This document shows, piece by piece, positions 1,467-62,919 of a DNA stretch of 64,000 bases. This DNA is from Elusimicrobiota bacterium (GTDB taxonomy: Bacteria > Elusimicrobiota > Elusimicrobia > UBA1565 > UBA9628), in contig DAHXMM010000031.1 in NCBI GenBank assembly GCA_027371715.1, forward strand, positions 12,477-76,476. The letters are read 5' to 3'. The translations under genes were made by a program, and so were the position numbers. Numbering within the stretch: position 1 is the first letter of the stretch; every line of letters starts with the position of its first letter. The notes beneath the pieces were generated by a model. It saw nothing but the letters and a program-made list of their open reading frames with translations. It was not told the origin of the DNA and searched no databases.

Positions 1467-1505
1467 GGGCCAAAAGGCCTAGACTCTTTAGGGTCAAAAG
1501 ACCTA
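1467..1505 (-). promoter_or_regulatory. Promoter-proximal tandem-repeat element (TAGGTC-type), copy 1
   Basis: The reverse complement reads TAGGTCTTTTGACCCTAAAGAGTCTAGGCCTTTTGGCCC. This is nearly identical to the copies at 52427 and 22658. Confidence 0.6.
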
Positions 1506-1556
1506 TATCTTTCGGCTTATTCGTCGAAAGAAAATAAAGCAGGGACTCTTGTTTGG

Positions 1557-3787: not shown

Positions 3788-3824
3788 TTTCCTCTCCAAT
3801 GCCTTGTCCTATACTCTTAAAGCC

Positions 3825-3867
3825 GGCATTGTCCCGACCTTAAGATTATTGAGGAACGGGGCCAAAA
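3825..3867 (+). repeat. Degenerate copy of the composite intergenic element (matches 32644-32682)
   Basis: GGCATTGTCCCGACCTTAAGATTATTGAGGAACGGGGCC compares with GGCATTGTCCCTACCTCAAGATTATTGCGGAAGGGGAC at 32644. Confidence 0.6.
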
Positions 3868-3883: not shown

Positions 3884-4213
3884 ATGGCGCGCTTAGACGG
3901 AAAGGAGATGGAGTCCGTTCGGAGCGTTTTAAATTCAATTCTCGCTGATTTTCCGGGCTCGCGCGTTTGGCTGTTCGGGTCCCGGGCCAAGGAAAATGCG
4001 CGCGGCGGCGACATTGATTTTCTCATCGAGATCAAGGTCCCGGTCCGGGACGCGGCGGATTTAAAGAGAAAATGGGCGCGTCTCTTTAAAGACAGGATGG
4101 GGGAGCAAAAAATAGATATTGTCCTTAAATACCCGGGCGCCAAACCCAGCAGTTTTTACGATTTGGCCAAAAGCGAGGGAGAAATTATTTGGAGCCATCC
4201 AAGACCGAGCTGA
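3884..4213 (+). CDS. Nucleotidyltransferase-domain protein (MNT-type antitoxin)
   Basis: The motif is LFGSRAKENARGGDIDFLIE (GS...DxD). It overlaps the following HEPN gene. Confidence 0.75.
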   Translation: MARLDGKEMESVRSVLNSILADFPGSRVWLFGSRAKENARGGDIDFLIEIKVPVRDAADLKRKWARLFKDRMGEQKIDIVLKYPGAKPSSFYDLAKSEGEIIWSHPRPS

Positions 4214-4659
4214 AAAAGAAGTATCTTGCGGAGCAGTTGGAGGCGGCGCGCCGGGCCGTCAATGCCTTGACCTTGTCCCATGAATCTCTTCAGGCAAAAT
4301 ATCCTTTTCCGCATTCCTTGTCCAACGAACTAGACGAGAAGTTGGAATCTTTGACCTCGCGCTTCGCGCGCTTGACCGATATCTTGACGCAGAAAGTTTT
4401 CCGCGCCATAGACGCTCTCGAGCTCGAAAATGAAGGGACTTTGCTCGATCGCTTAAACCGTATGGAAAAGCGCGGAGTGATTTCCTCGGCTTCTCTTTGG
4501 CGGGATATTCGCGATTTGCGCAATCAAATATCGCATGACTATTTGGAGGATGAAATCGAATCGTTGAGAAACGGCGCGTTTAAATACTGCCCCGATTTGT
4601 TCGCCGCGTTTAAATCCGCCGAGTCCTACGCGCGAAAAATTCTGGAGCGCGATGAATAA
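4189..4659 (+). CDS. HEPN/DUF86-like protein (HepT-type toxin)
   Basis: The R-x4-H motif is RNQISHDY. The gene is paired with the upstream MNT, and its stop overlaps the carA start. Confidence 0.65.
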   Translation: MEPSKTELKKKYLAEQLEAARRAVNALTLSHESLQAKYPFPHSLSNELDEKLESLTSRFARLTDILTQKVFRAIDALELENEGTLLDRLNRMEKRGVISSASLWRDIRDLRNQISHDYLEDEIESLRNGAFKYCPDLFAAFKSAESYARKILERDE

Positions 4660-9795: not shown

Positions 9796-9870
9796 CATCG
9801 CCGAATCGGCTACGCACGAATCTTGATAAAAGCGATTTGCCGGCTTGCGCCTGAGATTTAGGCTTTGACG

Positions 9871-10143
9871 CTATCTGTAAATCTCATGCGTGCCGACGTC
9901 GTAGTAAAGGACTTCATTGCCGTCCAGGAACGCGAACAGAACGCGGTATTGATAATTGACGGAATAGGACCAATATCCGTCCAGTTCTCCTTTCAGCTTG
10001 TGAGCGCCGAGCCTGGGATCAAGCGCATCCGCGCGGAACCATAGATCTTTTTTCTCGGCAAGCGTCCGGACCGGTTTGGGAAGTCGGCGGAAAGATTTTC
10101 GAAAATCGGAGGTGGTGTGAATCCTTAAGACTGGCCGAGTCAC
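9871..10143 (-). CDS. RelE/ParE-family type II toxin
   Basis: The protein is 90 aa. The motif is HKLKGELDGYWSYSVNYQYRVLFAF...VGTHEIYR. A small upstream partner gene is present. Confidence 0.75.
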   Translation of the reverse strand: MTRPVLRIHTTSDFRKSFRRLPKPVRTLAEKKDLWFRADALDPRLGAHKLKGELDGYWSYSVNYQYRVLFAFLDGNEVLYYDVGTHEIYR

Positions 10144-10480: not shown

Positions 10481-10999
10481 TCAGTTGGGGACTGTCCCCA
10501 TTTCCCACTCATATCCGGCCCGCCGCATGGCGCGTTTGGCGGCCTCAAGGGCTTGAGGGCGTTTAGAGTAAGGACGCAGCGGCAGTTCGGGCGCGGCGGC
10601 GATTTTACCCATCAAGTTTCCGACGGTTTCCTTGGGGAGGGCGTCGCAAGCGGAGTAAAACCCGCCGGGCTCTTCTTCCCTAAGATTATGCGATAGGAGA
10701 ATGGCGCATAAGGCCGCGGCGATTTCTCGGGTAGGCTCTGGGACCAAAAGATTGGTCAGCGCCCCGTGATCCAGACGGAGTTGCGCGGCTAAGGATTTGA
10801 GATGAGCGGCCGGGCTTTTGATGGCGGGCAAAAGAACGGTCTCTTCAATTCCGATATGCCTTAAAAGCCCTTGGCGGAAATCCCAAAAGGGTTTTGCGCG
10901 AACGCCTTCTCGGATACCCAGCGCTTCTTTCATGAGCCCGTCCAGCCTTGAGTGGTCTTGAGCCATGCTCAAGGCGATGGGCCCCGGCTTTTCACTCAT
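10481..10999 (-). CDS. Hemerythrin (HHE cation-binding) domain protein
   Basis: The H/E motifs are QDHSRLDG, LLRHIGIEETVLLPA, LDHGAL and LSHNLREEE. The last residues, EMGTVPN, are encoded by the palindromic repeat. Confidence 0.75.
   Translation of the reverse strand: MSEKPGPIALSMAQDHSRLDGLMKEALGIREGVRAKPFWDFRQGLLRHIGIEETVLLPAIKSPAAHLKSLAAQLRLDHGALTNLLVPEPTREIAAALCAILLSHNLREEEPGGFYSACDALPKETVGNLMGKIAAAPELPLRPYSKRPQALEAAKRAMRRAGYEWEMGTVPN
10484..10506. repeat. GGGGACTGTCCCC palindromic repeat copy (perfect core 10487-10499)
   Basis: The sequence is GTTGGGGACTGTCCCCATTTCCC. Confidence 0.65.
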
Positions 11000-11492
11000 G
11001 GAGATCGAGAGCCTCTTTTGGATGATGGGATTGGCAGCAGCAGGCGTATCTTTCCTCGGGAATGGCTTGCATGCTTTCTTCTATTTTCGCGATTCCTTCT
11101 TTTCCCATCGCCGCGTCGATGGCGGGGTAAAGAACGCGCTCTTCTTTCATGTTGTGGGACTCAAGCAAGGACAATAGGGCCTCTTCCGCCTCGTCGCTTT
11201 CGGGGTTTTTCGCCCGAACTTTTTCGTGAATTAAGTCAAGATATTTTTTGATTTCGCGGTGTTCCCCGCGCATGACCATGGTGGGCCCCGGAAGCACTTC
11301 CGGCGCGCTTTTCTCAAAGGCCGGGAAAAGAATCTCTTCTTCCCAAACGATGTGCCGGGTGAGCCCCTTGAGAAACTCCTTGAACTTTTGTTTCGCCAGG
11401 TCCGGATCCCGGCGCTTTAATTTCCTAAAATCGGAGAAGAACCCGTCGATTCGGTCGTGATCCTCCGCGAAGTAATTCGAGACGCTTTTCAT
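10992..11492 (-). CDS. Hemerythrin (HHE cation-binding) domain protein
   Basis: The motifs are AEDHDRIDG, LTRHIVWEEEILFP, MRGEHREI and LESHNMKEERVLYP. I moved the start to the MKSV ATG at 11492, which has AAGGAG 8 nt upstream. Confidence 0.78.
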   Translation of the reverse strand: MKSVSNYFAEDHDRIDGFFSDFRKLKRRDPDLAKQKFKEFLKGLTRHIVWEEEILFPAFEKSAPEVLPGPTMVMRGEHREIKKYLDLIHEKVRAKNPESDEAEEALLSLLESHNMKEERVLYPAIDAAMGKEGIAKIEESMQAIPEERYACCCQSHHPKEALDLHE

Positions 11493-11523
11493 TTTATTTT
11501 CTCCTTTCGTCATTTTTGCGGCT

Positions 11524-11537
11524 TCCTATTAATAGGA
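11524..11537. promoter_or_regulatory. Perfect 14-bp palindrome TCCTATTAATAGGA in the hemerythrin promoter region
   Basis: It lies between the crp/fnr-family gene stop and the hemerythrin operon start, and it contains TATTAAT. Confidence 0.45.
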
Positions 11538-11581
11538 TAGCGCATGAGAAGAAACGAAATAATGCGCCAGATCAGGTTTTT

Positions 11582-12247
11582 TTAATTTTCTTTAGAGAGG
11601 CTTGAGGCGTACTTTTCCAGCTTTTCTGGGTTAAGCACGGTGATTTTCTTCCATCCTGAAATAATGAGTTTCTTTTTTCTAAAGTCTGAGAGAACGCGAA
11701 TGGCGGTTTCTTCGGTTGTGCCGGACATTTCTGAAATGTCTTCTCTTGTGATAGCCAAATCCTTGCCTACGCTTTTAGAAAGAAGCCCAAGAATAAAGGC
11801 AATTCTCTGCGGAGCGGGTTCTCTTGCAATGGCGCGCAAGGCTTGCGATTGTCGCAAATGTTCGCCGATTTCAGAATAAACCGCTTGCGAGAAGTCAGGG
11901 TGAGTTTTGAGGAGATTTTCAAATACCTTGGCTGGAATTTCATAGAGCTCGGAGTCGCAAATACAGAGGGCGGTCACGGGGTAGGGTTTCTGATCCAAGA
12001 GGGCGATCATGCCGAAAAGGCCTTTCGGCGAGATAATTTCCATAATCACGGGTTCTTCCCGGCGGGAATATTTGACGGCCTTAATCAAACCGGATTTTAA
12101 AAGATAAACCGAATGAGGAGGGTCGCCGTCCATAAAGACCGCTTGTCCTTTGCCAAAACGGCGCAAAAAGACTTTTTGGGATAACTCTTTGAGCGCTTTT
12201 TCCGGCAAACGCTTAAAGAGAGAAAGGGAAGTGAGAAAAAAATCCAT
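11582..12247 (-). CDS. Crp/Fnr-family transcriptional regulator
   Basis: A cNMP-binding-like N-terminal domain is followed by the C-terminal HTH ITREDISEMSGTTEETAIRVLSDFRKKKLI. There is no FNR-type N-terminal Cys cluster. Confidence 0.8.
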   Translation of the reverse strand: MDFFLTSLSLFKRLPEKALKELSQKVFLRRFGKGQAVFMDGDPPHSVYLLKSGLIKAVKYSRREEPVIMEIISPKGLFGMIALLDQKPYPVTALCICDSELYEIPAKVFENLLKTHPDFSQAVYSEIGEHLRQSQALRAIAREPAPQRIAFILGLLSKSVGKDLAITREDISEMSGTTEETAIRVLSDFRKKKLIISGWKKITVLNPEKLEKYASSLSKEN

Positions 12248-13293
12248 TACCGAAGAAAGGGAAAATTCTTGGGCGGAATACCTTTAAGACCTTGACTTTC
12301 TAAAAAGTCGGAGACAATTTTGTTTTCCGCTTGTCGCCAGGCTATTTTAGGGGCAGACTCTCCCAATTCAATTGAGCCTCCGGCGATCATTGAATGGCCG
12401 CCGCCCCGGTTTCCGCCGCCTAAAAGTCTTCTGAGAAGCTTTCCCGCCCTGGCCGCGGGGTTTGAGCTTCTGAGTGAAATAAATAGTTTTCCCTTATACC
12501 TTCCCGTGACGATAGACCAGTCCATTTTTTCATGGGTGAGGAGAAAATCCGCAATTTGAGCGGCGCGGTCGGGGACATTGAGTTCTCCCAAATGAGTGCC
12601 GATGACGTTTCGGCAAATAAAGGCATTTTGAAGAGCCGAAAGAAGCGAGGTAAAAAAATCAGGAGAATGCTTGGGATAGGCGATTTTCCATAGAGTTTGC
12701 ATATGGGCTTTCGGCCAAAATTCCTGATAGGCCTTAATGTCTCTAGGGCTTGCTTCTCGTCCGAGATTTTGGGTTTCAGAACCGATTCCATAGACAATTG
12801 CGGTGGCGAGTTTTTTGGGGACGGCCACTTTGGCGAGGCTTAGGGCTTCGGCTAAAATAGTGGTCGTCGCTCCGGAGGATTCGTCAATTAAGACGCAATC
12901 GGCTTGGGTGTCTGGATGTCGCGGGTGATGGTCAATAATTAAAGCGGGTTTTCTTCGGGGGGGGCAGCGGTTGTTTTTAAAGGGCGGCTGGGTGTCGATG
13001 AGAGCAAGATGAGAACTCGCCTTAATTTCTCCGGGTTTAAGCGGGGAAGCGGGAATCTGAAGACGTTCGGCCATGATGCGGTTTTCGGCCCGGCCAATCA
13101 TCCCGCCGTAGACGATTTTGGCGTGAATATGGGCCACTTCATACGCGAGATGAGACAAGGCCCAGGCGGAGGCAAGGGCGTCGGGATCTGGATGATCATG
13201 GGTTAAAATCGTTAAGGGTTTAAGCCGTGAAGAATTTTCTTTTAGAAATTCAATGAGCTTTCGCGCGTGATAAAAGGAATTTTTTTTAGGCAT
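12247..13293 (-). CDS. DHH/DHHA1 phosphoesterase (NrnA-like; candidate pApA/c-di-AMP phosphodiesterase)
   Basis: The motifs are HDHPDPDALAS, LIDT, IIDHHP and GGGHSMIAGG. Confidence 0.8.
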   Translation of the reverse strand: MPKKNSFYHARKLIEFLKENSSRLKPLTILTHDHPDPDALASAWALSHLAYEVAHIHAKIVYGGMIGRAENRIMAERLQIPASPLKPGEIKASSHLALIDTQPPFKNNRCPPRRKPALIIDHHPRHPDTQADCVLIDESSGATTTILAEALSLAKVAVPKKLATAIVYGIGSETQNLGREASPRDIKAYQEFWPKAHMQTLWKIAYPKHSPDFFTSLLSALQNAFICRNVIGTHLGELNVPDRAAQIADFLLTHEKMDWSIVTGRYKGKLFISLRSSNPAARAGKLLRRLLGGGNRGGGHSMIAGGSIELGESAPKIAWRQAENKIVSDFLESQGLKGIPPKNFPFLR

Positions 13294-13301
13294 TCAATGA
13301 G

Positions 13302-14171
13302 TTAGCGGCTGACAAAGACAAAGGACAACCAAAGAAAGGTTGAGACTGCAATGGCGATGAGTTTTTCCTTGAGATTATATTTCCAAAACCCTTGGGTTTC
13401 CGCCAATTTTGTTTTAAGAAGAGATTTTTCGGCGGCGAAGAGTTCCAGCCGTTGCTGAAGATTTCCGAGATCAGTGACGGGAATAATTTCTCCGGCCAGG
13501 GCGAGAGAAATGGTTCCTTTCTCCTCGCTGACGATGATGGAGAGGGCGTCGGTGAGTTCCGAGAGCCCGATGGCCGCTAAATGCCGAGTTCCTAAGTTTC
13601 CGTCCAAGGATCTTTTGGAGAGGGGCAGGCGGCATCCAAAACGGCTGACTCGTCCGTTTTCGATAATGACGGCCCCGTCGTGACCCAGGGAATGGGCGTC
13701 AAAAATGCTCTCTAAAAGGGCTTCCGATATTTCGCCGTCTAAATCCCAACCGCCGTGAACGTGTCGTCCGAGAGGATCTCTGCCTTCTAAAACAATCAGG
13801 GCTCCAATTTTATCTTTCGCGCAGTCAGACACTGCGCGGGCTATTTTTTCTAAATATTGCGGCGATTGGGGTTGTGGGACGGGGGAGCGAAAACTCCAGA
13901 CCGCAATGCGCTCAAAAACTTGCCTGATTTCTTCCTGGAATATGACGATAATCGCGATGATAAAGACGGTAAAGAAACCGCGGAAAATCCAGACCGTCAT
14001 AATCATGTTGAGAAGACGGGCCGCGATATAAACGAAGATGAAAAGAAAAAAGCCCAAGGCCACAAAAGCCGTTTGGGTGCGCTTAAACCAAATTAAAAGA
14101 CCATAGATGAGACACGCGACGAAGGCGATATCTAGGAGGGCCGAAATAAACGGGAAAGGGGATAGAATCAT
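13302..14171 (-). CDS. cdaA: Diadenylate cyclase CdaA/DacA with an extra C-terminal TM helix
   Basis: Three N-terminal TM helices precede DAC motifs HDGAVII and GTRHLAAIG. I set the start at the ATG 14171-14169, which overlaps the nuoI stop (TAATG). The ORF-track start at 14222 lies inside nuoI. Confidence 0.82.
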   Translation of the reverse strand: MILSPFPFISALLDIAFVACLIYGLLIWFKRTQTAFVALGFFLFIFVYIAARLLNMIMTVWIFRGFFTVFIIAIIVIFQEEIRQVFERIAVWSFRSPVPQPQSPQYLEKIARAVSDCAKDKIGALIVLEGRDPLGRHVHGGWDLDGEISEALLESIFDAHSLGHDGAVIIENGRVSRFGCRLPLSKRSLDGNLGTRHLAAIGLSELTDALSIIVSEEKGTISLALAGEIIPVTDLGNLQQRLELFAAEKSLLKTKLAETQGFWKYNLKEKLIAIAVSTFLWLSFVFVSR

Positions 14172-14704
14172 TACGCGGCGGTCGGATTTTTCTTTCCTTC
14201 CAAGAGTTCCGCCATATTCCAAATCATGTCTTTTCGGTCATAGGCCGTGATAGCGACATCCGTTGAGTCCATGTGGATGGCGTCAACCGGGCAGGCCTCG
14301 GCGCAGTAGCCGCAGAAAACGCAAAGCCCCAGATCGATGCTGAACGATTTTGCGCGCTTTTCAACGATCACGTCCGGGCTGTCCTCGGCCACGATGCGGA
14401 TACATTTAGCCGGGCAAATGGTCTCGCATAAGAGGCATGCCGTGCAGCGGGGAGTTCCATCTTCTCTTTTAAGAAGTCGGTGCCGGGTTCTGGCGCGTCT
14501 TCCCAAGACCGCAGGGTCTTCCGGATATTGAATGGTGACCGCTCCCGGTTCGGACTTAAGGCCGAGAGCTTTGAACGTATGGCGGGCTAAATTAACAAAG
14601 AGATGCCGAAAGGTGACCAAAAGCCCCAGCCAAACTTCCCAGAGATAAATTTGTCCTTGAAAATTTTTCGGCGGGCGCGTGACTTCTTTTATCTTAATCG
14701 CCAT
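14171..14704 (-). CDS. nuoI: NADH-quinone oxidoreductase subunit I (2x[4Fe-4S])
   Basis: The cluster motifs are CTACLLCETICP and CVFCGYCAEACP. Confidence 0.88.
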   Translation of the reverse strand: MAIKIKEVTRPPKNFQGQIYLWEVWLGLLVTFRHLFVNLARHTFKALGLKSEPGAVTIQYPEDPAVLGRRARTRHRLLKREDGTPRCTACLLCETICPAKCIRIVAEDSPDVIVEKRAKSFSIDLGLCVFCGYCAEACPVDAIHMDSTDVAITAYDRKDMIWNMAELLEGKKNPTAA

Positions 14705-20238: not shown

Positions 20239-21552
20239 ATGACCGAGCCTAAGCGAGGAAATGGTTGGAGTCCAGAGTCCGTACGAAAGGAAACCATGGA
20301 ACAAACGCTGATCCTTAATATCGCCCAACTTTTGACTTTTCCGGGTCTTGACGCGCCGAGGCGGGGCCGGGATCTCAATTCCGTCGGCATGATTCGGGAC
20401 GCGGCGGTTCTCATCGAAAAAGGCCTGATCGTTGCCGCCGGGCCCAAGGACGTCGTTTTAAAGAAAACGAGTCCGGAAAAATGCCGCATCATCGACGCAC
20501 AAGGGCGGCTCGTCTTGCCGGGCTTTGTGGATGCTCACGCGCATCCTGTTTTTGCCGCGCCGCGGCTTTTTGATTTTGAACAGAGGACGCGAGGCCGGAC
20601 TTATTCCGAAATCGCCGCCGGCGGAGGAGGAATATTATCGACCGTGGATTTAGTTCGCCGCTCAAGCGCGGAAACCTTGACGGCGTCGCTTAAACGTTGG
20701 ACGCAAAAGTTCTTAGAAAGTGGAACGACCACTGTGGAAGCGAAATCAGGTTACGGTCTTGATTGGGAAAACGAGCGTAAAATCTTGCAAGTTTTGGCCC
20801 AAGCCGGGAAAGAAGGCCCGCTTGGAATTATTCCAACTTTTTTGGGCGCCCATGCCGTTCCTCCTGAGTTGCGAGAGAAAAGAGAAGTTTATATTCGGCG
20901 CATAATTGAGGAAATGATACCGCAAGTCGCCGAGGAAAATTTGGCCCGTTTTGTGGATGTTTTCTGCGAGGGGGGATACTTTTCAAAAGAAGAGTCCCAG
21001 AAAATTTTCGAGGCCTCCCAAAAAGCCGGGTTGGGGCTTAAAATCCACGCGGAACAATTATCCCGCTCCGGCGGTGCGGCCTTGGCGGCGGATTTCGAGG
21101 TCTCAAGCGCGGACCATTTGGATTTCGCGGATGATTCCGACATTCGCGCCTTGGCGCGGTCCAAGGTTGTCGCTTGCCTAGTGCCCGGTTCCAATTATTT
21201 TCTGTCGAAGCCCTATCCGCCCGCCCGGAAACTCATCGATTCGGGCGCAGCGGTGGCTTTAGCCACTGATTTTAACCCTGGAACCTGTCCGTGTTGGGAT
21301 ATGCGGATGATTTTGTCTATCGCCTGTACGCAGATGAAAATGAAAATTGAAGAAGCTTTATCGGCTTCCATCGTCAACGGGGCTTGGGCCATTGGGCTTG
21401 GAAAAACTCACGGCAGTCTTCAAGCGGGAAAAATCGCCGATTTGGTGTGTCATGAAGCCGAGGATTATCGCGAGCTTCCCTATTATTTCGGTCAAACTCC
21501 GGTCCTTTGGACCATGAAAAAAGGCGAAATCGTTTTTCGCCGCGAGAGATGA
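20239..21552 (+). CDS. hutI: Imidazolonepropionase
   Basis: The motifs are PGFVDAHAHPVF, KIHAEQLS, SADHL and ALATDFNPGTCP. Confidence 0.82.
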   Translation: MTEPKRGNGWSPESVRKETMEQTLILNIAQLLTFPGLDAPRRGRDLNSVGMIRDAAVLIEKGLIVAAGPKDVVLKKTSPEKCRIIDAQGRLVLPGFVDAHAHPVFAAPRLFDFEQRTRGRTYSEIAAGGGGILSTVDLVRRSSAETLTASLKRWTQKFLESGTTTVEAKSGYGLDWENERKILQVLAQAGKEGPLGIIPTFLGAHAVPPELREKREVYIRRIIEEMIPQVAEENLARFVDVFCEGGYFSKEESQKIFEASQKAGLGLKIHAEQLSRSGGAALAADFEVSSADHLDFADDSDIRALARSKVVACLVPGSNYFLSKPYPPARKLIDSGAAVALATDFNPGTCPCWDMRMILSIACTQMKMKIEEALSASIVNGAWAIGLGKTHGSLQAGKIADLVCHEAEDYRELPYYFGQTPVLWTMKKGEIVFRRER

Positions 21553-22643: not shown

Positions 22644-22693
22644 ACAGTCCCCAACTGGGTCTTTTGCCGGAAGGGGTCTAGGTCCTTTGGCCC
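22643..22693 (+). promoter_or_regulatory. Composite element made of a half palindrome plus the TAGGTC-type tandem repeat, copy 2
   Basis: The sequence is GACAGTCCCCAACTGGGTCTTTTGCCGGAAGGGGTCTAGGTCCTTTGGCCC. Confidence 0.6.
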
Positions 22694-22716
22694 TTGGGAG
22701 ACTTGAAATTGTTGGC

Positions 22717-22722: not shown

Positions 22723-24535
22723 GAAAGGGCCGGAACAAACGGCGCGAAGGGAAAGCGCTTATATAAGGAGAATTCCCATTAAAAAAGTAACCGCCTGGGC
22801 GCTGACGGGTGTTCTTTTTGTCTTATCTCCCGGCTTCTCTTCCTATCAGGCTTTTGCCGCTGAATTTTCGGAGAAACCCCCTGAGGTTTCTTCGCTTCAA
22901 ATTCCCGATGTTTCCGTCTCCATTCCCTCGGAGAACTCAGCCGCTTCTCAAGATTTAGCGATAGAAAAAATTGATTCTCTTCCCCCAAGCGAAACCCGTC
23001 TAACGGTGGGGAGGGAAACGAATATTCCGGAGTCGAAATCTCAGGAAATTGCCGCGCGCGTTGTGCAAGCCCTTGCCCCTGCGGCAGGATCAAAATCTGA
23101 AAAGCCTCTTTCCCAAGGCCGCCGGTTTTGGGGGCGTCTGAGCGGCCAGGTTTTTGGAAAATCCCAGGGCTCAAGAAAAATTTCGCTAGGCGTTCTCAAT
23201 CGTCTTTTTGACCGACAAAAAGAGATGGGGACTGTCCCTAACTCGCTTCACTCGCCCACCACAGATGTCCGCTCTGCAGATGGCGGGAGAAATATTTCTC
23301 TTGGAATCAGCAAATTTTCTCCGAAAAAGAGATTGGAGTGGGTTGAGCATATTAAAGCGCTTCCGGCGCCTTTCCTATGGAAATACGTTCCCGGCTGGTC
23401 TATCGCCGCGATGGGGGGCGAAATGCAGGCGGTGGCTCTCCCGGTTTTCACCGCTCAAGTTTTCGGCCTTTCCCAGGCGATTATCGCCGCCGGCGTTAAT
23501 TTGATTGCGCGTATTCCCGGCGCCTGGATGGGGGCTTTTTTTGTCGGGCATTTTAGCCCTAAGACCATTAATAATGTCGCTTTAATTATCTCCGCTTTAA
23601 GCGGCGGGCTTGTGCCTGCGGCGCTTTTTTTTCATTTGCCGCACGCGGCCCTTTTCGGAACTTTTCTTTTGGGTTCGACCCTTTCGGGCTTGGTTTACGG
23701 CGCAACGAGGGGTGTGACTGAAAATTTAATTCCGCCGCTTCTTATTTCAGACCGAACTCAACGGGAATTCGGCCTTAATTACGCCTATCAATGGGTGGAG
23801 CTCAGCTCCATTTTGATGGCGATGATTTCAGTTCCGCTACTCCACGTTTTCGGCGGAAGCGTAATATTGGGAATTTCAAGCTCGTTTTTCCTGATTGCGG
23901 CTTTATTTTATGGGTCTTTAAAACTGCATAAGCCGGAGGCCAAGGCCCCGGCGGCTGTTGAGAAACAAACGCAAGAAGGCTTGTCTTGGAGAAGTTACAT
24001 TCCCTTTGTCTTTTTTAGATTTATTCATTTCTCTCTCTATGCGGTTTTTGCCGCCGCGATTTCCATGGGCATCTTGCATGACGATAAGATGACCGGAAAT
24101 ATCATCGGGGCTTATGATTTTGGAAGCTGGATTTTCGGGTTCTTGGCGACGGCGGCTCTTTTGCCTAAAAAAGGAGAGCGGCCTTGGACCTTGGCTGGTG
24201 TTGGATCTGCGTTAGCTTTCTTATGGGCGAGTTCTCTTCTTCCCATTCCCGCTTTGTCCATGATTCTTGCCGGAGTCATGGGTGGAATGATTATGATTAA
24301 TTCCAACAAATGGATGAGCCTCTACCAGGAAAAGCTTCCACAATCGAAACTTAAAAATCTTTCCAAGTGGATGATGACGGCTAGCATTTTGGGAACCCTG
24401 CCTATCTTTATCGCGGCGGGCTTGAGCCAGGTTTTTCCCGCTTGGGCCGCATTTTTAACCATGCCCCATATTATCATAGGCGCCAACATTTTGGTGACGA
24501 TCTTGGGTCTTGCGGCTCTTTTTGGCTTTCGTTAA
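22721..24535 (+). CDS. MFS-like polytopic membrane protein with about 170 aa of N-terminal extension
   Basis: There are 12 or more hydrophobic helices from about 23390 onward. The start is uncertain. Candidates are TTG 22694, ATG 22721, ATT 22778 (AAGGAG 7 nt upstream, giving IKKVTAWALTGVLFVLSPGFSSYQAFA) and ATG 23224 inside the repeat. Confidence 0.65.
   Translation: MKGPEQTARRESAYIRRIPIKKVTAWALTGVLFVLSPGFSSYQAFAAEFSEKPPEVSSLQIPDVSVSIPSENSAASQDLAIEKIDSLPPSETRLTVGRETNIPESKSQEIAARVVQALAPAAGSKSEKPLSQGRRFWGRLSGQVFGKSQGSRKISLGVLNRLFDRQKEMGTVPNSLHSPTTDVRSADGGRNISLGISKFSPKKRLEWVEHIKALPAPFLWKYVPGWSIAAMGGEMQAVALPVFTAQVFGLSQAIIAAGVNLIARIPGAWMGAFFVGHFSPKTINNVALIISALSGGLVPAALFFHLPHAALFGTFLLGSTLSGLVYGATRGVTENLIPPLLISDRTQREFGLNYAYQWVELSSILMAMISVPLLHVFGGSVILGISSSFFLIAALFYGSLKLHKPEAKAPAAVEKQTQEGLSWRSYIPFVFFRFIHFSLYAVFAAAISMGILHDDKMTGNIIGAYDFGSWIFGFLATAALLPKKGERPWTLAGVGSALAFLWASSLLPIPALSMILAGVMGGMIMINSNKWMSLYQEKLPQSKLKNLSKWMMTASILGTLPIFIAAGLSQVFPAWAAFLTMPHIIIGANILVTILGLAALFGFR
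23221..23245. repeat. GGGGACTGTCCC palindromic repeat copy inside the ORF
   Basis: AGAGATGGGGACTGTCCCTAACTCG is translated as EMGTVPNS. Confidence 0.6.
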
Positions 24536-31489: not shown

Positions 31490-32602
31490 ATGATGAAAAA
31501 AATATTGGCGATTGGAATGACGGGCTTGTTGTGGGCGCCAAATTTGGCCTTGGCCCATGAGGGAAATTTTTCCCCTAGAAAAATTTACGATAAGGCTTCT
31601 CCGGCGGTCGTGACTGTCATCTGTAGCGGTCCAGAAGGCGGAAACGGAGAACTGGGAAGCGGGAGTCTGATTGCCGAAAACAAGGTTTTGACCAACGCCC
31701 ATGTTGTCATCCATAAATCAACGGGGCGCCCGTGGCCCTTGGTTCGCGTTTATCTGAAGCCCAAACATATGACCGGAAATCCGGATAAAGATCTTAACCA
31801 CGCGATTCGGGCTCATGTGGCTTTTTATGACCGCTCGCTTGATTTGGCGCTTTTAGAACTAGACCATCCTGCTTCCGGCCGTCCGGTTTTGTCTTTAGCC
31901 AATCCCAATAGCGTTTCTGTGGGAGATCCCGTGGCCGCGATTGGGGATCCCGAGGACGGGGGGCTTTGGACCTTGACGACCGGAATCATCAGCGCGGTCA
32001 TCGCCAATCTCGGCGGAGTCAAGGGCCGCTACGGTTATCAGACCGACGCTTCGATTAACCGTGGAAATTCCGGCGGACCGCTTCTGAATGCGAATGCCGA
32101 TATCGTGGGGATGAATACGATGATGGCGCGTCGTGCCCCGGATGGGCTCGCCATTACCGCGGTTAATTTCGCGATCCGTTCGGACGTCATTAAAGCTTGG
32201 CTCAATGCGAATGCCGGAATGGATATCGCCTATGCCGCTCCCGCAAACTCGCCTTCAAACTCCGTTCCTCAATCTGAGGAAGTGGCCCAGAACGGTTCTG
32301 AGTCTTCAGTCTCTAATCAAACTCATCAACAACAGCCTTCTTTACCATCAACTCCCATGTCTGATTCAGCCTTAGTCACCAAGAAAATTCCTGTTTCTCC
32401 CAAGTCGTCTGTCAATCCACCGCAAAAGCCCACGCCGCAAGTGGCCTCCGCAAAACCGATCCCTATCCGCCATGTGACGATTACCGAAAGCCGTCCCTAT
32501 AACCGTCGGCAACTTCTTCTTAAAAAGATGCGCCAGATGGATAATCTTGAGCAGGAAATGCATCAGGAATTTTTACGGCACGCTCAGAATCTGAACCAAT
32601 AA
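31490..32602 (+). CDS. Secreted trypsin-like (S1) serine protease with a Pro/Ser-rich tail
   Basis: The motifs are TNAHVV, DLALLEL and NRGNSGGPLL. Confidence 0.8.
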   Translation: MMKKILAIGMTGLLWAPNLALAHEGNFSPRKIYDKASPAVVTVICSGPEGGNGELGSGSLIAENKVLTNAHVVIHKSTGRPWPLVRVYLKPKHMTGNPDKDLNHAIRAHVAFYDRSLDLALLELDHPASGRPVLSLANPNSVSVGDPVAAIGDPEDGGLWTLTTGIISAVIANLGGVKGRYGYQTDASINRGNSGGPLLNANADIVGMNTMMARRAPDGLAITAVNFAIRSDVIKAWLNANAGMDIAYAAPANSPSNSVPQSEEVAQNGSESSVSNQTHQQQPSLPSTPMSDSALVTKKIPVSPKSSVNPPQKPTPQVASAKPIPIRHVTITESRPYNRRQLLLKKMRQMDNLEQEMHQEFLRHAQNLNQ

Positions 32603-32643
32603 AGGCCTAGCCTTCTATGCCTCTTCCCAATAATCATACGGGC

Positions 32644-32719
32644 GGCATTGTCCCTACCTCAAGATTATTGCGGAAGGGGACTAGGTCCTTTTTCTCTGAA
32701 AATCTAGGACTTTCGGCCC
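32644..32719 (+). promoter_or_regulatory. Composite element made of a half palindrome plus the TAGGTC-type tandem repeat, copy 3
   Basis: The sequence is GGCATTGTCCCTACCTCAAGATTATTGCGGAAGGGGACTAGGTCCTTTTTCTCTGAAAATCTAGGACTTTCGGCCC. Confidence 0.6.
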
Positions 32720-32742
32720 ATAGGGAATTTTTTAAATCAGGA

Positions 32743-32748
32743 TATAAT
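32743..32748 (+). promoter_or_regulatory. Candidate -10 TATAAT, 6 nt upstream of the response-regulator ATG
   Basis: The sequence is gaTATAATagaaatATG. It lies 23 nt downstream of the element. Confidence 0.5.
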
Positions 32749-32754
32749 AGAAAT

Positions 32755-33279
32755 ATGAACGTGATGGAATTAAAATCGGAAAAGGCGGTTGAATTAGGCG
32801 CTTTCTCGCGCCAGGACCGAATTTCTCCGGTGGGAGGGGCTAAAGAACTTCCGAAGTCTCTAGGCAAATTAAAGCCTGCCCGGGTCCCCTCCTCAAAAAA
32901 ATTATTTGTCTATCTTATTGACGATGACGCCCATTTTCGCGAGACTTTCTTAGATGTGATGTCTTTGCGCGGGGTTGAAGCGAAAAGCGCGGCATCCGGG
33001 GTTGAGGCTTTAAAAGAACTTCAGCTTGCTCGTCCGGCGGTCATCATTGTGGATGTTCGCTTGCCTGATATTCACGGTTTTGATTTGTGTCGTCTGATTC
33101 GCCGGATGGACGGTTTCCAAACGATTCCCTTAGTTCTTTTATCGGCTTCTTTCCGCTATAACGATCCGCGAGATCAGGTGGAGGGATTGTTGGCCGGAGC
33201 CTCCATTTTCCTTTCCAAACCTATCACCATGGAAAATTTGTGGACGGAAATTGAGTCTCTCCTTAAACGCGGGCGGTAG
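32755..33279 (+). CDS. Response-regulator receiver domain protein with no output domain
   Basis: The receiver motifs are YLIDDD, IIVDVRLPD, LLSAS and LSKP, after an N-terminal region of about 50 aa. The start is set by the promoter geometry. Confidence 0.7.
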   Translation: MNVMELKSEKAVELGAFSRQDRISPVGGAKELPKSLGKLKPARVPSSKKLFVYLIDDDAHFRETFLDVMSLRGVEAKSAASGVEALKELQLARPAVIIVDVRLPDIHGFDLCRLIRRMDGFQTIPLVLLSASFRYNDPRDQVEGLLAGASIFLSKPITMENLWTEIESLLKRGR

Positions 33280-33315
33280 CCTCCTATTCAAGTTGAAAAC
33301 GCTTTTTCTTCTCCC

Positions 33316-34704
33316 TTGACCTTGGGTCAGCAAATCACGGCAGTCATTAAAGGTCTGGCGGTTGAAGGCGCCGGGCTTGCCGTTCCCGAGGGCAAAACCG
33401 GTCCCATTATTTTTGTTCCTTTTACCGCGACGGGAGATCGGGTTCAGATTGAAATTACCGAATCCAAGAAAAATTTCGCGCGCGGAAAATTGCTTAAAAT
33501 TCTTTCTCCGGGGCCGGGCCGCGCAAACCCTGCCTGTTCTCTTCATTTTTCTGAAAGCCGAAAAATGGGCGCTTGCGGCGGATGCAATTGGCAGCATTTG
33601 GATTATTCCACGCAACTTTTAGAAAAAAGAAAACTTGTCGTTGATACGCTCAAAAAAATCGGCGGGTTTAAAAATCCCCAGGTTAAAGAGACTCTTTCTT
33701 CGCCTAAGGTATGGACATATCGCAATAAAGTCCAAATTCCCTTTGGGAAAAAAGAAGGAAAAATTATTTGCGGCTTTTATGAGACGCAAAGCCACCGGAT
33801 TGTAGATTTTTCCGGTTGTCCGGTTCAGTCGGATATTTCGGTTCGTATCGCCCTTAAGGTCAAATCTCTGGCCCAGGCGGGAAATTGGCCGATTTATGAC
33901 GAAGCCAGCGGAAGCGGTTGGCTGAGGCATTTACTCATTCGTTCAAATCATGAGGGAAAAGCCTTGCTCGCTTTTATTACGCGAAACGATTATTTTCCCA
34001 AAGGATCGTTTCTTGACTTTCTGAGCCAAGAGTTTCCTGAAATCGTGGGAATCCATCAAAATATCCAACCGCTTAATACCTCGGTTATTTTAGGGCGAAA
34101 GTGGAAAAAGCTTTGGGGTCAGGAAACGCTGACGGAGCAAATTGGCTCTTTTGTCTTTAAGGTCTCGGCAGGCTCTTTTCTCCAGGTCAATACTCCGGCC
34201 GCGGAAATTCTCTACCAGACGGCGGTGGAAGGGCTTGCCGAAGGCGGACGTCTTCCCCTGGTTTTAGATCTCTACTGCGGCGTTGGAACCACCAGCCTCT
34301 GGGCTTCTCAAGTGTCTGAGAGAGTCATTGGGGTCGAGGAAAACCCTCAGGCGGTGGCCAATGCCTGGGAAAACGCGCGCTTCAACAAAATCAATCGCAT
34401 CCGGTTTTTAGCCGGAAAATCTGAAACGGTTCTTTCTCGAATCAGGCATGAAATTAAAGAAGGTTCCGCCGTTTTATGCGATCCTCCGCGCACGGGGCTT
34501 GCGCCGCATTTGCCCAAGGTTTTGGGGCGCTTCCCCATCAAAAAATTGGTTTACATTTCATGCGATTTAGCGACTTTTAGCCGGGACGCTTCTCTGTTGT
34601 GCCGAGAAGGCTTTTCTCTGCGTTCGGTGCAGCCGGTGGATTTATTTCCACAAACTGCCCATGTCGAGACCGTTGGAGTTTTCGAGCGAAAACTTAGGTC
34701 CTAG
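33316..34704 (+). CDS. RumA/RlmD-type 23S rRNA (uracil-5)-methyltransferase with a TRAM domain
   Basis: An N-terminal TRAM-like region is followed by Cys cluster CGGCNWQ, then LDLYCGVGT, DPPRTG and VDLFPQTAHVE. Confidence 0.8.
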   Translation: MTLGQQITAVIKGLAVEGAGLAVPEGKTGPIIFVPFTATGDRVQIEITESKKNFARGKLLKILSPGPGRANPACSLHFSESRKMGACGGCNWQHLDYSTQLLEKRKLVVDTLKKIGGFKNPQVKETLSSPKVWTYRNKVQIPFGKKEGKIICGFYETQSHRIVDFSGCPVQSDISVRIALKVKSLAQAGNWPIYDEASGSGWLRHLLIRSNHEGKALLAFITRNDYFPKGSFLDFLSQEFPEIVGIHQNIQPLNTSVILGRKWKKLWGQETLTEQIGSFVFKVSAGSFLQVNTPAAEILYQTAVEGLAEGGRLPLVLDLYCGVGTTSLWASQVSERVIGVEENPQAVANAWENARFNKINRIRFLAGKSETVLSRIRHEIKEGSAVLCDPPRTGLAPHLPKVLGRFPIKKLVYISCDLATFSRDASLLCREGFSLRSVQPVDLFPQTAHVETVGVFERKLRS

Positions 34705-34725
34705 AAGTTCTAGGCCTTTAGGCCC
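34695..34725 (+). promoter_or_regulatory. TAGGTC-type element, short inverted variant, copy 4
   Basis: The sequence is TAGGTCCTAGAAGTTCTAGGCCTTTAGGCCC. It overlaps the rumA-like stop. Confidence 0.55.
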
Positions 34726-34748
34726 AGGATGGAAAGGGGTCTCTTTGC

Positions 34749-34754
34749 TATATT
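34749..34754 (+). promoter_or_regulatory. Candidate -10 TATATT, 7 nt upstream of ATG 34762
   Basis: It lies 23 nt downstream of the element end at 34725. Confidence 0.4.
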
Positions 34755-34761
34755 AATATTG

Positions 34762-35667
34762 ATGGAACAAAAACAGAGAATAGAGAGTCTGTATGGTTGC
34801 CTGCTTTCTCTTGCGCTTTCTTTTGCCGCTTCATCTCTTTACGCAAACCCCATGTATCTCTCCTCTGGAGGTAACATCCCTTCCTCCAATGCCTTGGATT
34901 TAGGACAAGAAACCCAAAAAATTATGAGCCTGGTCGCGAACAAAAACGCTTCCGTTTTCGCCATCCATCAGAAAGCCGAGAACGATTATGAATTCGGGAT
35001 GCCGGGCGCCGCGATTTTAATTCGGCCGCATCTCCACCCCTATAAAATCGAACCGACCTTAGGGGAACCTCCCGCGACGATTGAAGACTTAATTTCCGCC
35101 GCCCGCGATAGAATTGAAAATAATGGAAATCAAAATTCCAATTCGACGGTGGAAGCGACTTTGTCTAAAATTGACGAGATGGAATCTCACAAGCGTATTT
35201 CCTACGCCCAGCTTCCGTCCAATGAACTCGGAGTTTATAATAAGCTTTGCGGCGGGCAAAAAATGGGAAAACGGGCCGGCACGATTAATCTTCATAACCA
35301 TTTGGCCGTTATTTCGGTCGCGGTCGGGCGTCCCTTAGCGGCCTGTGTTCTCTTTCACGAGGCGGGACACGCTTCCGACCGGAATATTTGTCATGAATCA
35401 ACCGAAGACGTTGAGAGTTACGCCTTTCACCGGGAATATGACTGCATCGAGGCGATTTATCCCACCGGAGAAGAGTTGTTGACCACCTACCAACAGCTCA
35501 ATAACGCGGCTCAGGCGGCCGGGGCCAGTCCCGTGATTCGGGAATCCATGAATTTCATAAAAAATATCTACGATATTTACCGCACGGGCGGAGACGATCA
35601 AAAAATTAGGGAACTCGTCAACAAACTTTATAATTCCGACGGAACCCCCAGTTCTCCCGGAGCCTAA
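34762..35667 (+). CDS. Secreted hypothetical protein with an HExxH motif (putative metallopeptidase)
   Basis: The signal peptide is MEQKQRIESLYGCLLSLALSFAASSLYA, and the motif is LFHEAGHASD. The alternative start is 34729. Confidence 0.55.
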   Translation: MEQKQRIESLYGCLLSLALSFAASSLYANPMYLSSGGNIPSSNALDLGQETQKIMSLVANKNASVFAIHQKAENDYEFGMPGAAILIRPHLHPYKIEPTLGEPPATIEDLISAARDRIENNGNQNSNSTVEATLSKIDEMESHKRISYAQLPSNELGVYNKLCGGQKMGKRAGTINLHNHLAVISVAVGRPLAACVLFHEAGHASDRNICHESTEDVESYAFHREYDCIEAIYPTGEELLTTYQQLNNAAQAAGASPVIRESMNFIKNIYDIYRTGGDDQKIRELVNKLYNSDGTPSSPGA

Positions 35668-48871: not shown

Positions 48872-51800
48872 ATGCACTTAAAAACGGTGGACATTTTTGG
48901 GTATAAATCTTTCGCCCAAAAAACCCATTTGGACCTTCAACAGGGAATTAATGGAATCATTGGCCCTAATGGCTGTGGAAAATCCAACATCATGGAATCC
49001 ATTCGCTGGTGTTTGGGAGAAAGCTCCTGGAAGTCCTTGCGGGCGGATGCGATGACCGATGTCATTTTTGCCGGGACCGCTCGAAAACCCGCCTTGTCTT
49101 TTTGTGAAGTGACTTTAACTTTTGACAATTCCTCTCAAGGTCTTCCGATTCCATTTTCTGAAGTGACGGTGACCCGCCGCCTTTTTAGATCGGGGGAATC
49201 TCTTTATTTCTTAAATAAAAGCCAATGCCGACTTAAAGACGTGCGCGATCTCTTTTTAGATACGGGGCTTGGAAGCGGCGGATATGCCGTCATCGATCAG
49301 GGGCGCGTGGAAATGATGATTTCAGCCAAACCTGATGAACGGCGCGCGTTCTTTGAAGAAGCGGCTGGCGTTGCCAAATATAACGCGAGAAGAGAAGAAG
49401 CCCTTAAAAAACTTGAGCGCGTTGAAGCGGATATGGCGCGCGTGATGGACGCTCGCGCCCTGGTGGATGAACAGGTCAAGAAACTTGACTCGGACGCCAA
49501 AAAAGCGAATCTATTCCAGAAATATAAGGAAGAGCTGTCGGCGGCGGAAGCCTCGCAAATTCTAAAAGAGATTTCTCGGCTTGAATCTCTGCTGGAAGAA
49601 GGTCGCCTCAAGCGCCAGCCGTTGGAAGAATCTCTGGGCCAGAAGAAAGTTGAAATTGACGTCGCCGGCGCGGAGACTTCCGCCTTAAATTTAGAACAAG
49701 CCCAAGCCCAGGCGCAGGCGATGGAAGCGGGCAAAAAATCTTCCGAGATTAAGGCGCAAGTGGCGCGCCTTGAAGAAAGAATTCAGTCTTGGGAGCGGGA
49801 AGCCGCTTCCGCCGCGGAAAGGGTGAAGTCTCTTCAAACCGAAGAAATGACCCTGAAAGAAAAAATAGCCTCGACAGATGAAGATTTAGATCGGACGCGC
49901 GTGGATTTAGAGAAATTAGAAGCGCAGCTTGAGGTTGTTCATCAGGAAGTGGAAGGCGAGACGGAAAGAATGGAAGGTTTGTCTTTGCAGGTTTCTCAAG
50001 CCCAGTCGGAATGGGAAGAGAAGGGGCGAAAGACGCTTGAGGCTTCCGAGCGGCTTCTAGTTGAGACGCGCAAGGTCTCTGAAGGCGAGTCGGATTTGAC
50101 TCGGATAGAAGCGAGGATACGTTCTTCCTTGAGGGAATATGGGAAGGATTTAGAGGCGGCGGCTTCTTTACTCGCGGCGCTGGAATCGGCGCGCGCAGAA
50201 CTTAAACAGTGCGAAAATATTTTAGAAGCCTCAAAAGCGGATTTGGAAACAACACAGGCGGAGCTAGAGAACGCGCGGCTTAAAGAAAAAGAATTGGATG
50301 CGGAAAATTTGCGTCTCCATTCTCAAGTCGCTGAAACGCAGGCCCAGCTCAAAGCTTTGGAAGCTCGCGGCGAACAGGACGCTTATTGGGTGGGGGCCCA
50401 GACGGTGGCGCGCGCCGGTCTCCCGGGAATCGTGGGAACCTTGCAATCTCTTTTTGAGGTGGAGGAGTCTCTTCGGGTTAAAATTCAGGATATTTTGGGA
50501 GAAAGACTTCATGCGGTGGTGTGCGAGGATTCTTCCGCCGCCCGGAATGCGATTGATTTCTTAAAAGCATCGAACCGTGGGCGCTGTCGGTTTTTAGTTC
50601 TTAGCTCCATTCCCTTGGGCGTTTCTGAGAGAAGTTATCCCGAAGAAGCGATGCCGCTTTTGTCTAAAATCAAGTTTGACTCGCGCTATGAGCCTTTGAT
50701 GCGCTTTCTTTTCGCGGAAAGCTACGCTCTAGGGCCTTTGGTTTTTGGCGATCATTGGGTATTTGGCGGCGCCCTTCTTTCTCCTCATGAAGGGTTATCC
50801 TTGGCGGATATCGAGCGCCTTCGGAGAGATTTGGAATCCTTAAAAACGAGTTTGGCCGACATGGCCATTCAAAAGCAAACCGTTTCCGCTTCAATTGGCG
50901 AATGGGAAAATAAATTTCGCGACGCGTCCCGGAAAATGACTGAAGATTTGGGGCGCCGGGAATCCTTGGCCGCCCAGGTGGCGGAGAAAGAAGCGGTTTT
51001 AGCCGCGCGGCAAAAAAATAGTTTGATCGTGGAGACCGAGGCGGTGGAAGGCTTAAAAGAGTGGTCTGTTTCCGCTGATAAGCTCAAAGATCTCGAAAAT
51101 GCTTTAGGGGCTTTTCGGAGCGCGGAAGAAGCGGCTCGTTTGTCCCAGGAAGAATCTTTGAAAGCCCTTTCCATCCTCAAAGATAAACTGGTTGAGGAAA
51201 AAGCTAAGCAGGGCGCCGTAAAAGCCCGGCTTGAGGCGTTGGAGGGGCAGGCTTTCCAGTTAAAGCGTTCTTGCGAACGCCTTGAAAAGGAAAAAGAATC
51301 TCATCGTCAGTCCATCGCGCGTGCGGTGGAAGCGATTTCTTCCCTGTCTTCCAAACAGGAAGAATGCGCTTTAAGTATCGCCCAGGGCCGGCAGGAGTTG
51401 GATGTCCTCTACCGTGATTTGTCCGCTTCCGAGTCTGAGTTAAAAGCGGTGATGGAGAGACTTCAGCAGCTGGAATTGGACATTCATCAGAAAGGCGAGT
51501 CCTTGAAAATTCTCAAGGCGAATGCCGAAGCTGTTCAAGAAGAGCTTCATGCTTTGGATGTCGAAGCCAGCGCTTCTAAAAGCGCGCAGGATAGCCTCAA
51601 GTCGCGCTTATGGGATCAATGGCAGTTGACCTATGAAGAGGCAAAATCGAAATACGAGTCTCAGGAGGAAGTCAATCCCGAGCGTTTAGAATTTTTAAGA
51701 AAGCGCATTAACAATCTTGGCCACGTCAATATGGCGGCCCCAGAGGAATATCAGGATCTGACCCAGAAGCAATCTTTTCTTAATTCCCAGATTGAAGACA

Positions 51801-52387: not shown

Positions 52388-52426
52388 AACAGTGAGTTGA
52401 TTTCGCCAATTTCATCTTTTCGGAAG

Positions 52427-52464
52427 TAGGTCTTTTGCCGGAAATTTTCTAGGTCCTTTGGCCC
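52427..52464 (+). promoter_or_regulatory. TAGGTC-type tandem-repeat element, copy 5
   Basis: The sequence is TAGGTCTTTTGCCGGAAATTTTCTAGGTCCTTTGGCCC. Confidence 0.65.
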
Positions 52465-52487
52465 ATTTTTTCTTCCTCATTGAATGT

Positions 52488-62831: not shown

Positions 62832-62885
62832 CGTAAAATTAGAATAACACACAAACGCTTTTTTCGCAAGGGGAAAAAAGACCTA

Positions 62886-62919
62886 TTTTTAAAATAGGCC
62901 TTTAGGCCCTGGCGAGGTT
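62886..62919. repeat. TAGGNC-type element, inverted variant
   Basis: The sequence is AAAAGACCTATTTTTAAAATAGGCCTTTAGGCCC. The spacing to the tsaB -10 does not match the other copies. Confidence 0.45.

Follow-up and report, generated by a model that had tools for sequence, protein, structure and literature searches.

We analyzed a promoter element that recurs in a 64,000-nucleotide stretch of an Elusimicrobiota genome (assembly GCA_027371715.1, contig DAHXMM010000031.1, positions 12,477 to 76,476), which we call the window and number from its first letter. The element is an imperfectly palindromic unit that lies in a fixed register to the -10 hexamer, and to the transcription start deduced from it, usually together with a second such unit further upstream, and the genes that it precedes encode mostly exported proteins. 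The motif is conserved across, and restricted to, the phylum Elusimicrobia, whatever the base composition of the genomes. We propose, with a probability of about 0.55, that these units are tandem operators, occasionally triplets, for one dimeric activator of the class II type that would control a regulon of exported proteins across the phylum. A transcription-factor operator at the class II position belongs to a kind already known; what is new is the motif itself, its phylum-wide conservation regardless of base composition, and a regulon chiefly defined by export. Transcription in Elusimicrobia, which have very few cultured members, is to our knowledge almost unknown, and full-text literature searches yielded no description of a promoter or operator motif from them.

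Seven promoters in the window

A first-pass annotation of the window had described a tandem repeat locked to -10 boxes upstream of six genes and had interpreted it as a candidate operator. We found all six sites in the sequence at the coordinates it had given, and a seventh promoter at 62871-62910 on the minus strand. The sites are listed below, with scores from a position weight matrix (PWM) that was built from other genomes only.

1491..1506, minus strand: distal unit of site 1, ATAGGTCTTTTGACCC, 17.0 bits
1464..1482, minus strand: proximal unit of site 1, CTAGGCCTTTTGGCCC followed by TGT (16-mer at 1467-1482), 29.3 bits
1438-1443, minus strand: -10 hexamer of site 1, TACACT; ATG at 1428-1430, 7 nt past the -10 (leaderless)
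22655..22670, plus strand: distal unit of site 2, CTGGGTCTTTTGCCGG, conserved in 6 related genomes
22678..22696, plus strand: proximal unit of site 2, CTAGGTCCTTTGGCCC followed by TTG (16-mer at 22678-22693), 32.3 bits
22717-22722, plus strand: -10 hexamer of site 2, TACAAT
32681..32696, plus strand: distal unit of site 3, CTAGGTCCTTTTTCTC
32704..32722, plus strand: proximal unit of site 3, CTAGGACTTTCGGCCC followed by ATA (16-mer at 32704-32719), 21.8 bits
32743-32748, plus strand: -10 hexamer of site 3, TATAAT; ATG at 32755, 6 nt past the -10 (leaderless)
34710..34728, plus strand: proximal unit of site 4, CTAGGCCTTTAGGCCC followed by AGG (16-mer at 34710-34725), 26.3 bits
34749-34754, plus strand: -10 hexamer of site 4, TATATT; ATG at 34762, 7 nt past the -10 (leaderless)
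52426..52441, plus strand: distal unit of site 5, GTAGGTCTTTTGCCGG
52449..52467, plus strand: proximal unit of site 5, CTAGGTCCTTTGGCCC followed by ATT (16-mer at 52449-52464), 29.3 bits
52488-52493, plus strand: -10-like hexamer of site 5, TATATG
58862..58877, plus strand: distal unit of site 6, TTGGGCCCTTTGCCGG
58885..58903, plus strand: proximal unit of site 6, CTAGGACTTTGGACCC followed by ATC (16-mer at 58885-58900), 17.8 bits
58924-58929, plus strand: -10-like hexamer of site 6, TATATC; ATG at 58939
62895..62910: distal unit of site 7, inverted, AGGGCCTAAAGGCCTA on the minus strand and TAGGCCTTTAGGCCC on the plus strand, 22.9 bits
62871..62886, minus strand: proximal unit of site 7, ATAGGTCTTTTTTCCC, then CTTGCG (TAGGTCTTTTTTCCC is 62871-62885 on the minus strand)
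62841-62846, minus strand: -10 hexamer of site 7, TATTCT, 24 nt after the proximal unit and 9 nt before the ATG at 62829-62831

At sites 1 to 6, the proximal 16-mer has the form CTAGGnCnTTnGGnCC (one reads GGACCC) and ends exactly 23 nt before TACACT, TACAAT, TATAAT, TATATT, TATATG or TATATC. These hexamers are present as annotated, although the last two lack the usual final T. The pairing of the repeats also holds in general, the second unit lying about 23 bp upstream, but site 4 lacks a regular distal unit: upstream of it there is only an out-of-register TAGGTCCTAG at 34695-34704, 15-16 bp from the proximal unit. In the lineage of the window the distal unit is a direct copy, TGGGTCTTTTGCCGGAA. 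Distal units of this lineage (22655-22672, 52426-52443, 58862-58879) end in a conserved TTGCCGGAA, not in GGCCC or CCTA, and TTGCCGGAA is found again within the spacer of site 6, at 58912-58920.

The 16-mer occurs nine times in the window at up to 3 mismatches, for 0.44 occurrences expected, and none of 100 shuffles reached nine. The PWM gives 11 matches of at least 10 bits, against 0.65 in shuffled sequences. All matches of at least 15 bits fall in the seven promoter regions, where each proximal unit faces the downstream gene, and the two weakest ones (20437-20455 and 50729-50747, about 10 bits) sit within coding open reading frames (ORFs). Seven copies in 64 kb amount to roughly one promoter per 9 kb, which would correspond to a number on the order of a hundred or more in a genome of a few Mb. 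Three further degenerate copies had been proposed in the window. The one at 62886-62919 is half of a genuine promoter, the seventh. The one at 9834-9870 has no PWM match of at least 10 bits, and the one at 3825-3867 belongs to another repeat, about 36 nt long, with two copies; the second copy, at 32644-32680, explains why the first-pass annotation had set the start of its feature at 32644.

Six of the seven products in the window are exported or membrane proteins. Site 1 precedes the gene of an AAA+/FtsH-like protein with a signal-peptide-like N-terminus, site 2 that of an MFS-like membrane protein, and site 4 that of an exported HExxH protein. Site 5 heads an operon encoding a DUF6588-like exported protein, a 1223-amino-acid alpha-amylase-domain protein and a GH15 enzyme. 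The product of site 6 is a second GH15 enzyme, with a signal peptide, and that of site 7 is an exported protein of 600 amino acids, beginning MKKFTRREILVAIILSS, to which no family was assigned. The stand-alone receiver-domain protein of site 3 is the sole non-exported one. Housekeeping cytoplasmic genes, e.g., carAB, glpK, hemD, SMC, nuo subunits and alr, lack the motif. The MFS-like gene probably starts at an ATT at 22778, 7 nt past an AAGGAG at 22765. This arrangement (22765-22780) is kept in six genomes, with orthologous sequences in L035, L059, L106, L123 and L133 of our set of loci, and the reading frame of an upstream ATG, which overlaps the -10, is not conserved.

Conservation, products and anatomy of the element

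Two patterns were searched in one genome per species, for 185,579 species. The first was the exact 16-mer CTAGGTCCTTTGGCCC, without a -10 requirement, and the second was CTAGGnCnTTnGGnCC-N(18-28)-TAnAAT, where the variable gap serves as an internal control. The first scan gave 58 exact matches, about 37 of them in metagenome-assembled genomes (MAGs) of Elusimicrobia or Elusimicrobiaceae, or in bins with contigs near-identical to these. The Elusimicrobia genomes with the exact 16-mer span 34-71% GC. The remaining matches come from assorted unrelated phyla and lack the surroundings of a promoter. A TAnnnT hexamer follows at 22-24 nt in 24 of the 37 Elusimicrobia sites vs 1 of the 21 others. The second scan was counted among the matches listed, which does not bias the gap length. 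Among these, the gap in Elusimicrobia was 23 nt in 39 of 76 cases, 22 nt in 13 and 24 nt in 14 (66/76), each other length being found 0-4 times. For comparison, the 37 matches listed from other phyla showed a flat distribution of gaps and none at 23 nt. Both the motif and its spacing are thus kept across related genomes.

A few contigs with motif promoters belong to bins that carry other labels, namely L008 and L087 (Muribaculaceae), L045 (Eggerthellaceae), and L048 and L113 (Spirochaetes UMGS352). These contigs are near-identical to Avelusimicrobium/Elusimicrobia sequences and are probably mis-binned Elusimicrobia DNA. The window itself aligns closely, in intergenic and coding sequence, with the Elusimicrobia-labelled MAGs clean4882 and clean561, and also with the unclassified bins JA2.bin36, LSA5.bin12 and YF2.bin79.

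The products of the motif promoters were assessed over the collected loci. A signal-peptide-like N-terminus was found in 78 of 89 first downstream ORFs (88%), against 33% of 656 other ORFs (p=3e-23), and the difference remains when proteins with another transmembrane segment are left aside (80% with the motif vs 23.5%). Counting independent protein clusters, 43 of 51 are signal-peptide-like. When only the first genes of transcription units are compared, the values are 76% with the motif and 30% without it (p=1e-12). That most products are exported or membrane proteins had been noticed at the six sites, and it now has a statistical basis of about 50 protein families in about 100 loci. Pfam matches include M20, M1, S8 and trypsin-like peptidases, endonuclease I, metallo-beta-lactamase-fold proteins, amidases and GH15. 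Secreted hydrolases dominate, and many products have no family match.

Two observations were made on these products and their promoters. In 49 of the 78 exported products, an A, G or S followed by Q stands near the predicted signal-peptidase site, a pattern reminiscent of the 'Q-rule' of Bacteroidetes. Promoters of exported endonuclease I (L006 at about 3790-3830; L022, L070 and L152) have TTGAC...GTCAA inverted repeats just past the -10, which may be a second, gene-specific operator.

The unit is constrained also at positions that the search pattern left free. The fourth N is C in 98% of sites, position 7 is a pyrimidine in every site, position 16 is T (77%) or A (23%) and never G or C, and position 18 is G in 73%. 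In its fixed form, the proximal unit reads CTAGGnCyTTtGGCCC(T/A)(T/G)G, from about -51 to -33, with its centre near -42; rich in G+C and sequence-specific, it keeps its GG and CC blocks invariant. Its 19-bp frame, CTAGGnCC-TTT-GGnCCTTG, is an imperfect palindrome of the half-site CWAGGnCC in which 5-6 of 9 positions pair. Written as an inverted repeat, likewise imperfect, the unit is TAGG(n)C...G(n)CCTA, its TAGG and CCTA arms standing 8-9 bp apart: exact TAGG-N8-CCTA is found 16 times and TAGG-N9-CCTA 11 times, and other spacings 1-5 times. The first and fourth N are complementary in just 2 of 116 pairs. This lack of covariation argues for selection on recognition by a protein, not on a hairpin.

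A further unit is common upstream of the proximal one, with 52 matches vs 1 in a downstream control. The offset is 23-25 bp in 41 of the 52, which places the centre of the second unit near -66, and a few promoters have a third unit at 47-48 bp. The second unit occurs in either orientation. In Elusimicrobiaceae it is commonly inverted, as GGGCCAAAAGACCTAG-N7-CTAGGTCTTTTGGCCC, and sometimes serves two divergent promoters. When one orthologous promoter was aligned from six genomes, the two units and the -10 proved conserved, and the spacers had diverged.

In 26 of the 89 motif promoters, the first long ORF opens at an ATG exactly 6 nt past the -10, and in another 7 the distance is 7 nt; sites 1, 3 and 4 of the window are of this type. 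More generally, TAnWAT-N6-ATG opening a long ORF is found 77 times, vs 3-30 times at any other distance, whether or not the motif is present (e.g., at 41017 in the window). This geometry is consistent with leaderless mRNAs whose +1 would be the A of the ATG. If +1 is placed there, the 16-mer spans -51 to -36 and the centre of the unit falls at -42 to -42.5. Hence, the idea of a regulon-type operator locked to the -10, with a proximal repeat at about -51 to -36 and a second one near -74 to -59, agrees with our analysis. Riboswitches are placed accordingly. Aptamers of the purine-type family RF03165 (2'-dG-II) start 8-13 nt past the -10 upstream of genes for exported metallo-beta-lactamase-fold proteins in three loci (L017 at 6104-6174, L025 at 7085-7155 and L039 at 7040-7110), a placement that requires a start site where the geometry predicts it.

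Promoters with and without the motif differ upstream of the -10. The motif-less leaderless promoters (n=46, from the loci and the window) have no -35 consensus and show, upstream of TAtAAT, an AAWTT at -19 to -15, which suggests that AAWTT plus TAnAAT without a -35 is the ordinary promoter of the phylum. Motif promoters have the ordinary TAnAAT and lack the AAWTT spacer element, T at -15 being found in 29% of them vs 61% of the motif-less ones. They also have no TTGACA, only T, T/G and G following GGCCC. The TTG may be the end of the palindrome, a remnant of a -35, or both. The window promoters lack a canonical -35, as had been noted, and a standard two-hexamer sigma-70 scan of 32400-35000 missed sites 3 and 4, the two window promoters of that region. 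The motif seems to replace the AAWTT spacer element. As this element is lacking despite an ordinary TAnAAT, the bound protein would be expected to activate, and this is the main, indirect ground against repression.

Proposed activator and competing explanations

In the mechanism that we propose, a dimeric sequence-specific DNA-binding protein would occupy each unit, and two dimers, sometimes three, would bind side by side. The position of the second unit, 23-25 bp upstream and facing either way, suggests that two dimers bind cooperatively. The promoter-proximal dimer near -42 would touch RNA polymerase in the manner of class II activators, which at this position contact sigma region 4 and the alpha subunit. 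The regulon would comprise a large set of exported-protein genes, perhaps a tenth of all genes. Protein binding, its dimeric form, activation and the contact with RNA polymerase are all steps that we infer.

The closest resemblance is to the class II promoters of CRP/FNR, whose sites centre at -41.5, and to the cyanobacterial NtcA promoters, which read GTA-N8-TAC-N22-TA-N3-T. Common to all are a two-fold symmetric 4-N8/9-4 site centred about 42 bp upstream of the start, 22-23 nt from the site to the -10, and a global regulon of many promoters; the -35 likewise appears weak or absent. The Elusimicrobia element differs in its sequence, TAGGnC...GnCCTA, in its centre at -42 to -42.5, in the regularity of its phased second site, and in a regulon set by the export of the product instead of by a metabolic pathway. 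Another parallel is lambda OR1-OR2/PRM, where 17-bp operators lie 23-24 bp apart with OR2 at -42. There too, quasi-palindromes of 16-19 bp are spaced 23-24 bp centre to centre, with the proximal one near -42 by the -35 region, and by analogy cooperative dimers and a contact with sigma region 4 might be expected. Unlike the lambda operators, the element lies on the chromosome, extends over a phylum and occurs at tens to hundreds of promoters, it has no divergent lytic promoter logic, and nothing points to a binder of the cI/Xre type. These resemblances would thus concern the way of working, not family membership.

Two other comparisons concern scope. The -33/-7 elements of Bacteroidetes are also promoter features confined to one phylum irrespective of GC content. 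They serve the primary sigma factor as its general recognition sequence, whereas only a subset of promoters carries the element described here and the general Elusimicrobia promoter is AAWTT plus TAnAAT. The envelope and exoprotein regulons of sigma-E, of Bacillus DegU and of Xanthomonas Clp likewise coordinate the transcription of exported or degradative proteins. Their cis-elements and regulators are different, none has this motif or geometry, and we know of none that is conserved over a phylum in this way.

For annotation, the element offers a handle on where promoters lie and where leaderless genes start, and also on exported hydrolases and surface proteins that form a coherent set, one that probably reflects how these bacteria feed. 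A regulon defined by export may point to a dedicated control circuit of the secretome, and the tandem units are an obvious bait for capturing its regulator.

Several points weigh against this reading. The binding protein was not found, either by clustering of neighbours or by inspection of the transcription factors in the window. Among 847 clustered ORFs from about 108 collected loci, no helix-turn-helix (HTH) or small DNA-binding gene recurs beside the sites. The sole transcription factor of the window, a CRP/FNR-like protein at 11582-12247, would fit the geometry, but no link between it and the motif was found; a single-sequence locus search with this protein gave only a close relative with 84% identity. 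The transcription start was deduced from geometry, and the sign of regulation is read only from geometry and the missing spacer element. As for the TTG behind GGCCC, it could simply be left over from a -35 and not belong to the operator. The element is present at only about half of the transcription units for exported proteins in the window. On the side of sampling, loci were gathered with the motif as bait, which makes the patterned positions conserved by construction, and signal peptides were called by a crude hydropathy rule. Taxon labels are those of the MAG records, and several unclassified bins were counted as Elusimicrobia by sequence similarity.

Two candidates for the regulator were set aside: genes with a cNMP domain beside motif sites in L010 and L046 encode no HTH, and the site 3 receiver protein lacks a DNA-binding domain, while none of the collected promoters belongs to an orthologue of it. 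The CRP/FNR-like gene itself stands in a minus-strand cluster (10481-14222) with two hemerythrins, a DHH/DHHA1 phosphoesterase and a CdaA-type diadenylate cyclase, which may be an oxygen/nitric oxide-sensing and cyclic di-AMP module.

A related reading, which we hold more tentatively than the class II activator, goes further. A phylum-specific global transcription factor, or an accessory protein of RNA polymerase, would recognize the ~19-bp palindrome at -42 and thereby define a separate promoter class for the exported proteome. If so, the sorting of exported from cytoplasmic proteins would be encoded already at transcription initiation for a large share of the secreted proteins.

A repressor or dual regulator might instead use the same tandem operators and keep the genes of exported hydrolases off until it is released, either by blocking upstream contacts of RNA polymerase or by oligomerizing over the promoter. 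Tandem palindromic units suit repressors equally well, and many motif promoters have a good TAnAAT, some also a TTG at -35, such that they might fire unaided. However, operators of repressors usually overlap the -10, the start or the spacer and are variably placed, whereas here the register is fixed within 1 bp over the phylum, the site is wholly upstream of -33, and the promoters lack the AAWTT used by motif-less ones. We regard repression as unlikely.

Less likely still is that RNA polymerase itself reads the motif, as an UP-like element bound by the alpha C-terminal domains or as the extended -35 of a dedicated factor of the sigma-70 family. The strict position and orientation of the proximal unit, which abuts the -35 position, its many copies per genome (7 in 64 kb), and half-sites about 11 bp apart, like the E. 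coli UP subsites, would all fit. Yet an A+T-rich tract at -40 to -60, as in UP elements, was not found, this region being occupied by the G+C-rich, two-fold symmetric unit, with its second copy near -66. The reiteration at 23-25 bp (sometimes 47-48 bp) in either orientation is not explained by sigma region 4 or by two alpha C-terminal domains. The alternative sigma factor that the first-pass annotation had also considered meets the same difficulty, since the unit is repeated upstream and both the TAnAAT and the 6-nt distance to a leaderless ATG are the same as in motif-less promoters.

The other proposal of that annotation, direct repeats bound by a response regulator of the OmpR/PhoB or NarL type, appears very improbable. 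The units of the window lineage are indeed direct, five of the seven sites showing TAGGTCTTTTGCC...CTAGGTCC, and a receiver-domain protein is among the members of the regulon. But the units are themselves imperfect inverted repeats, their period is 23-25 bp and not 10-11 bp, the distal one is often inverted in other Elusimicrobia, commonly so in Elusimicrobiaceae and at times shared by divergent promoters, and the receiver protein of site 3 has no DNA-binding domain. This reading is contradicted by the tests run here, and so is, most clearly, that of a non-promoter element (an RNA hairpin or terminator, or a dispersed mobile or REP-like repeat): GGnCC-TTT-GGnCC could form a short hairpin and the copies are dispersed, but there is no compensatory variation (the first N is T, C or A while the fourth is C), no Rfam model matches the motif sites in the window or in 18 loci, the strong window matches keep to promoters, face genes and have a fixed gap to the -10, and no flank is conserved beyond the units.

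Other known kinds of site were also considered. Judged by eye, the GG and GC spacing does not fit the sigma-54 (-24/-12) consensus, and the resemblance to CtsR, LexA and Lrp-type sites seems superficial, their regulons being unlike. A target of restriction-modification or methylation (CTAG, GGNCC) leaves the fixed register to the -10 across the phylum unexplained.

Minor features of the window

The 36-nt repeat that had been taken for a copy of the element reads GGCATTGTCCCnACCTyAAGATTATTGnGGAAsGGGG. It occurs in the window at 3825-3860 and 32644-32680, with one copy in a relative (L118, 4828-4854). The second window copy is part of a hairpin at 32620-32680 with a 16-bp stem, just after a protease gene (z = -2.8).

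The window also carries a nucleotidyltransferase-toxin pair of the MNT/HepT type (3884-4659), whose MNT gene has a leaderless-type GATACT-N6-ATG, and a HigB/YafQ-like toxin gene (9871-10143). Directly after the second GH15 gene lies an isolated ORF of 83 amino acids (60753-61004) with a HisKA domain only, which may be the remnant of a kinase.

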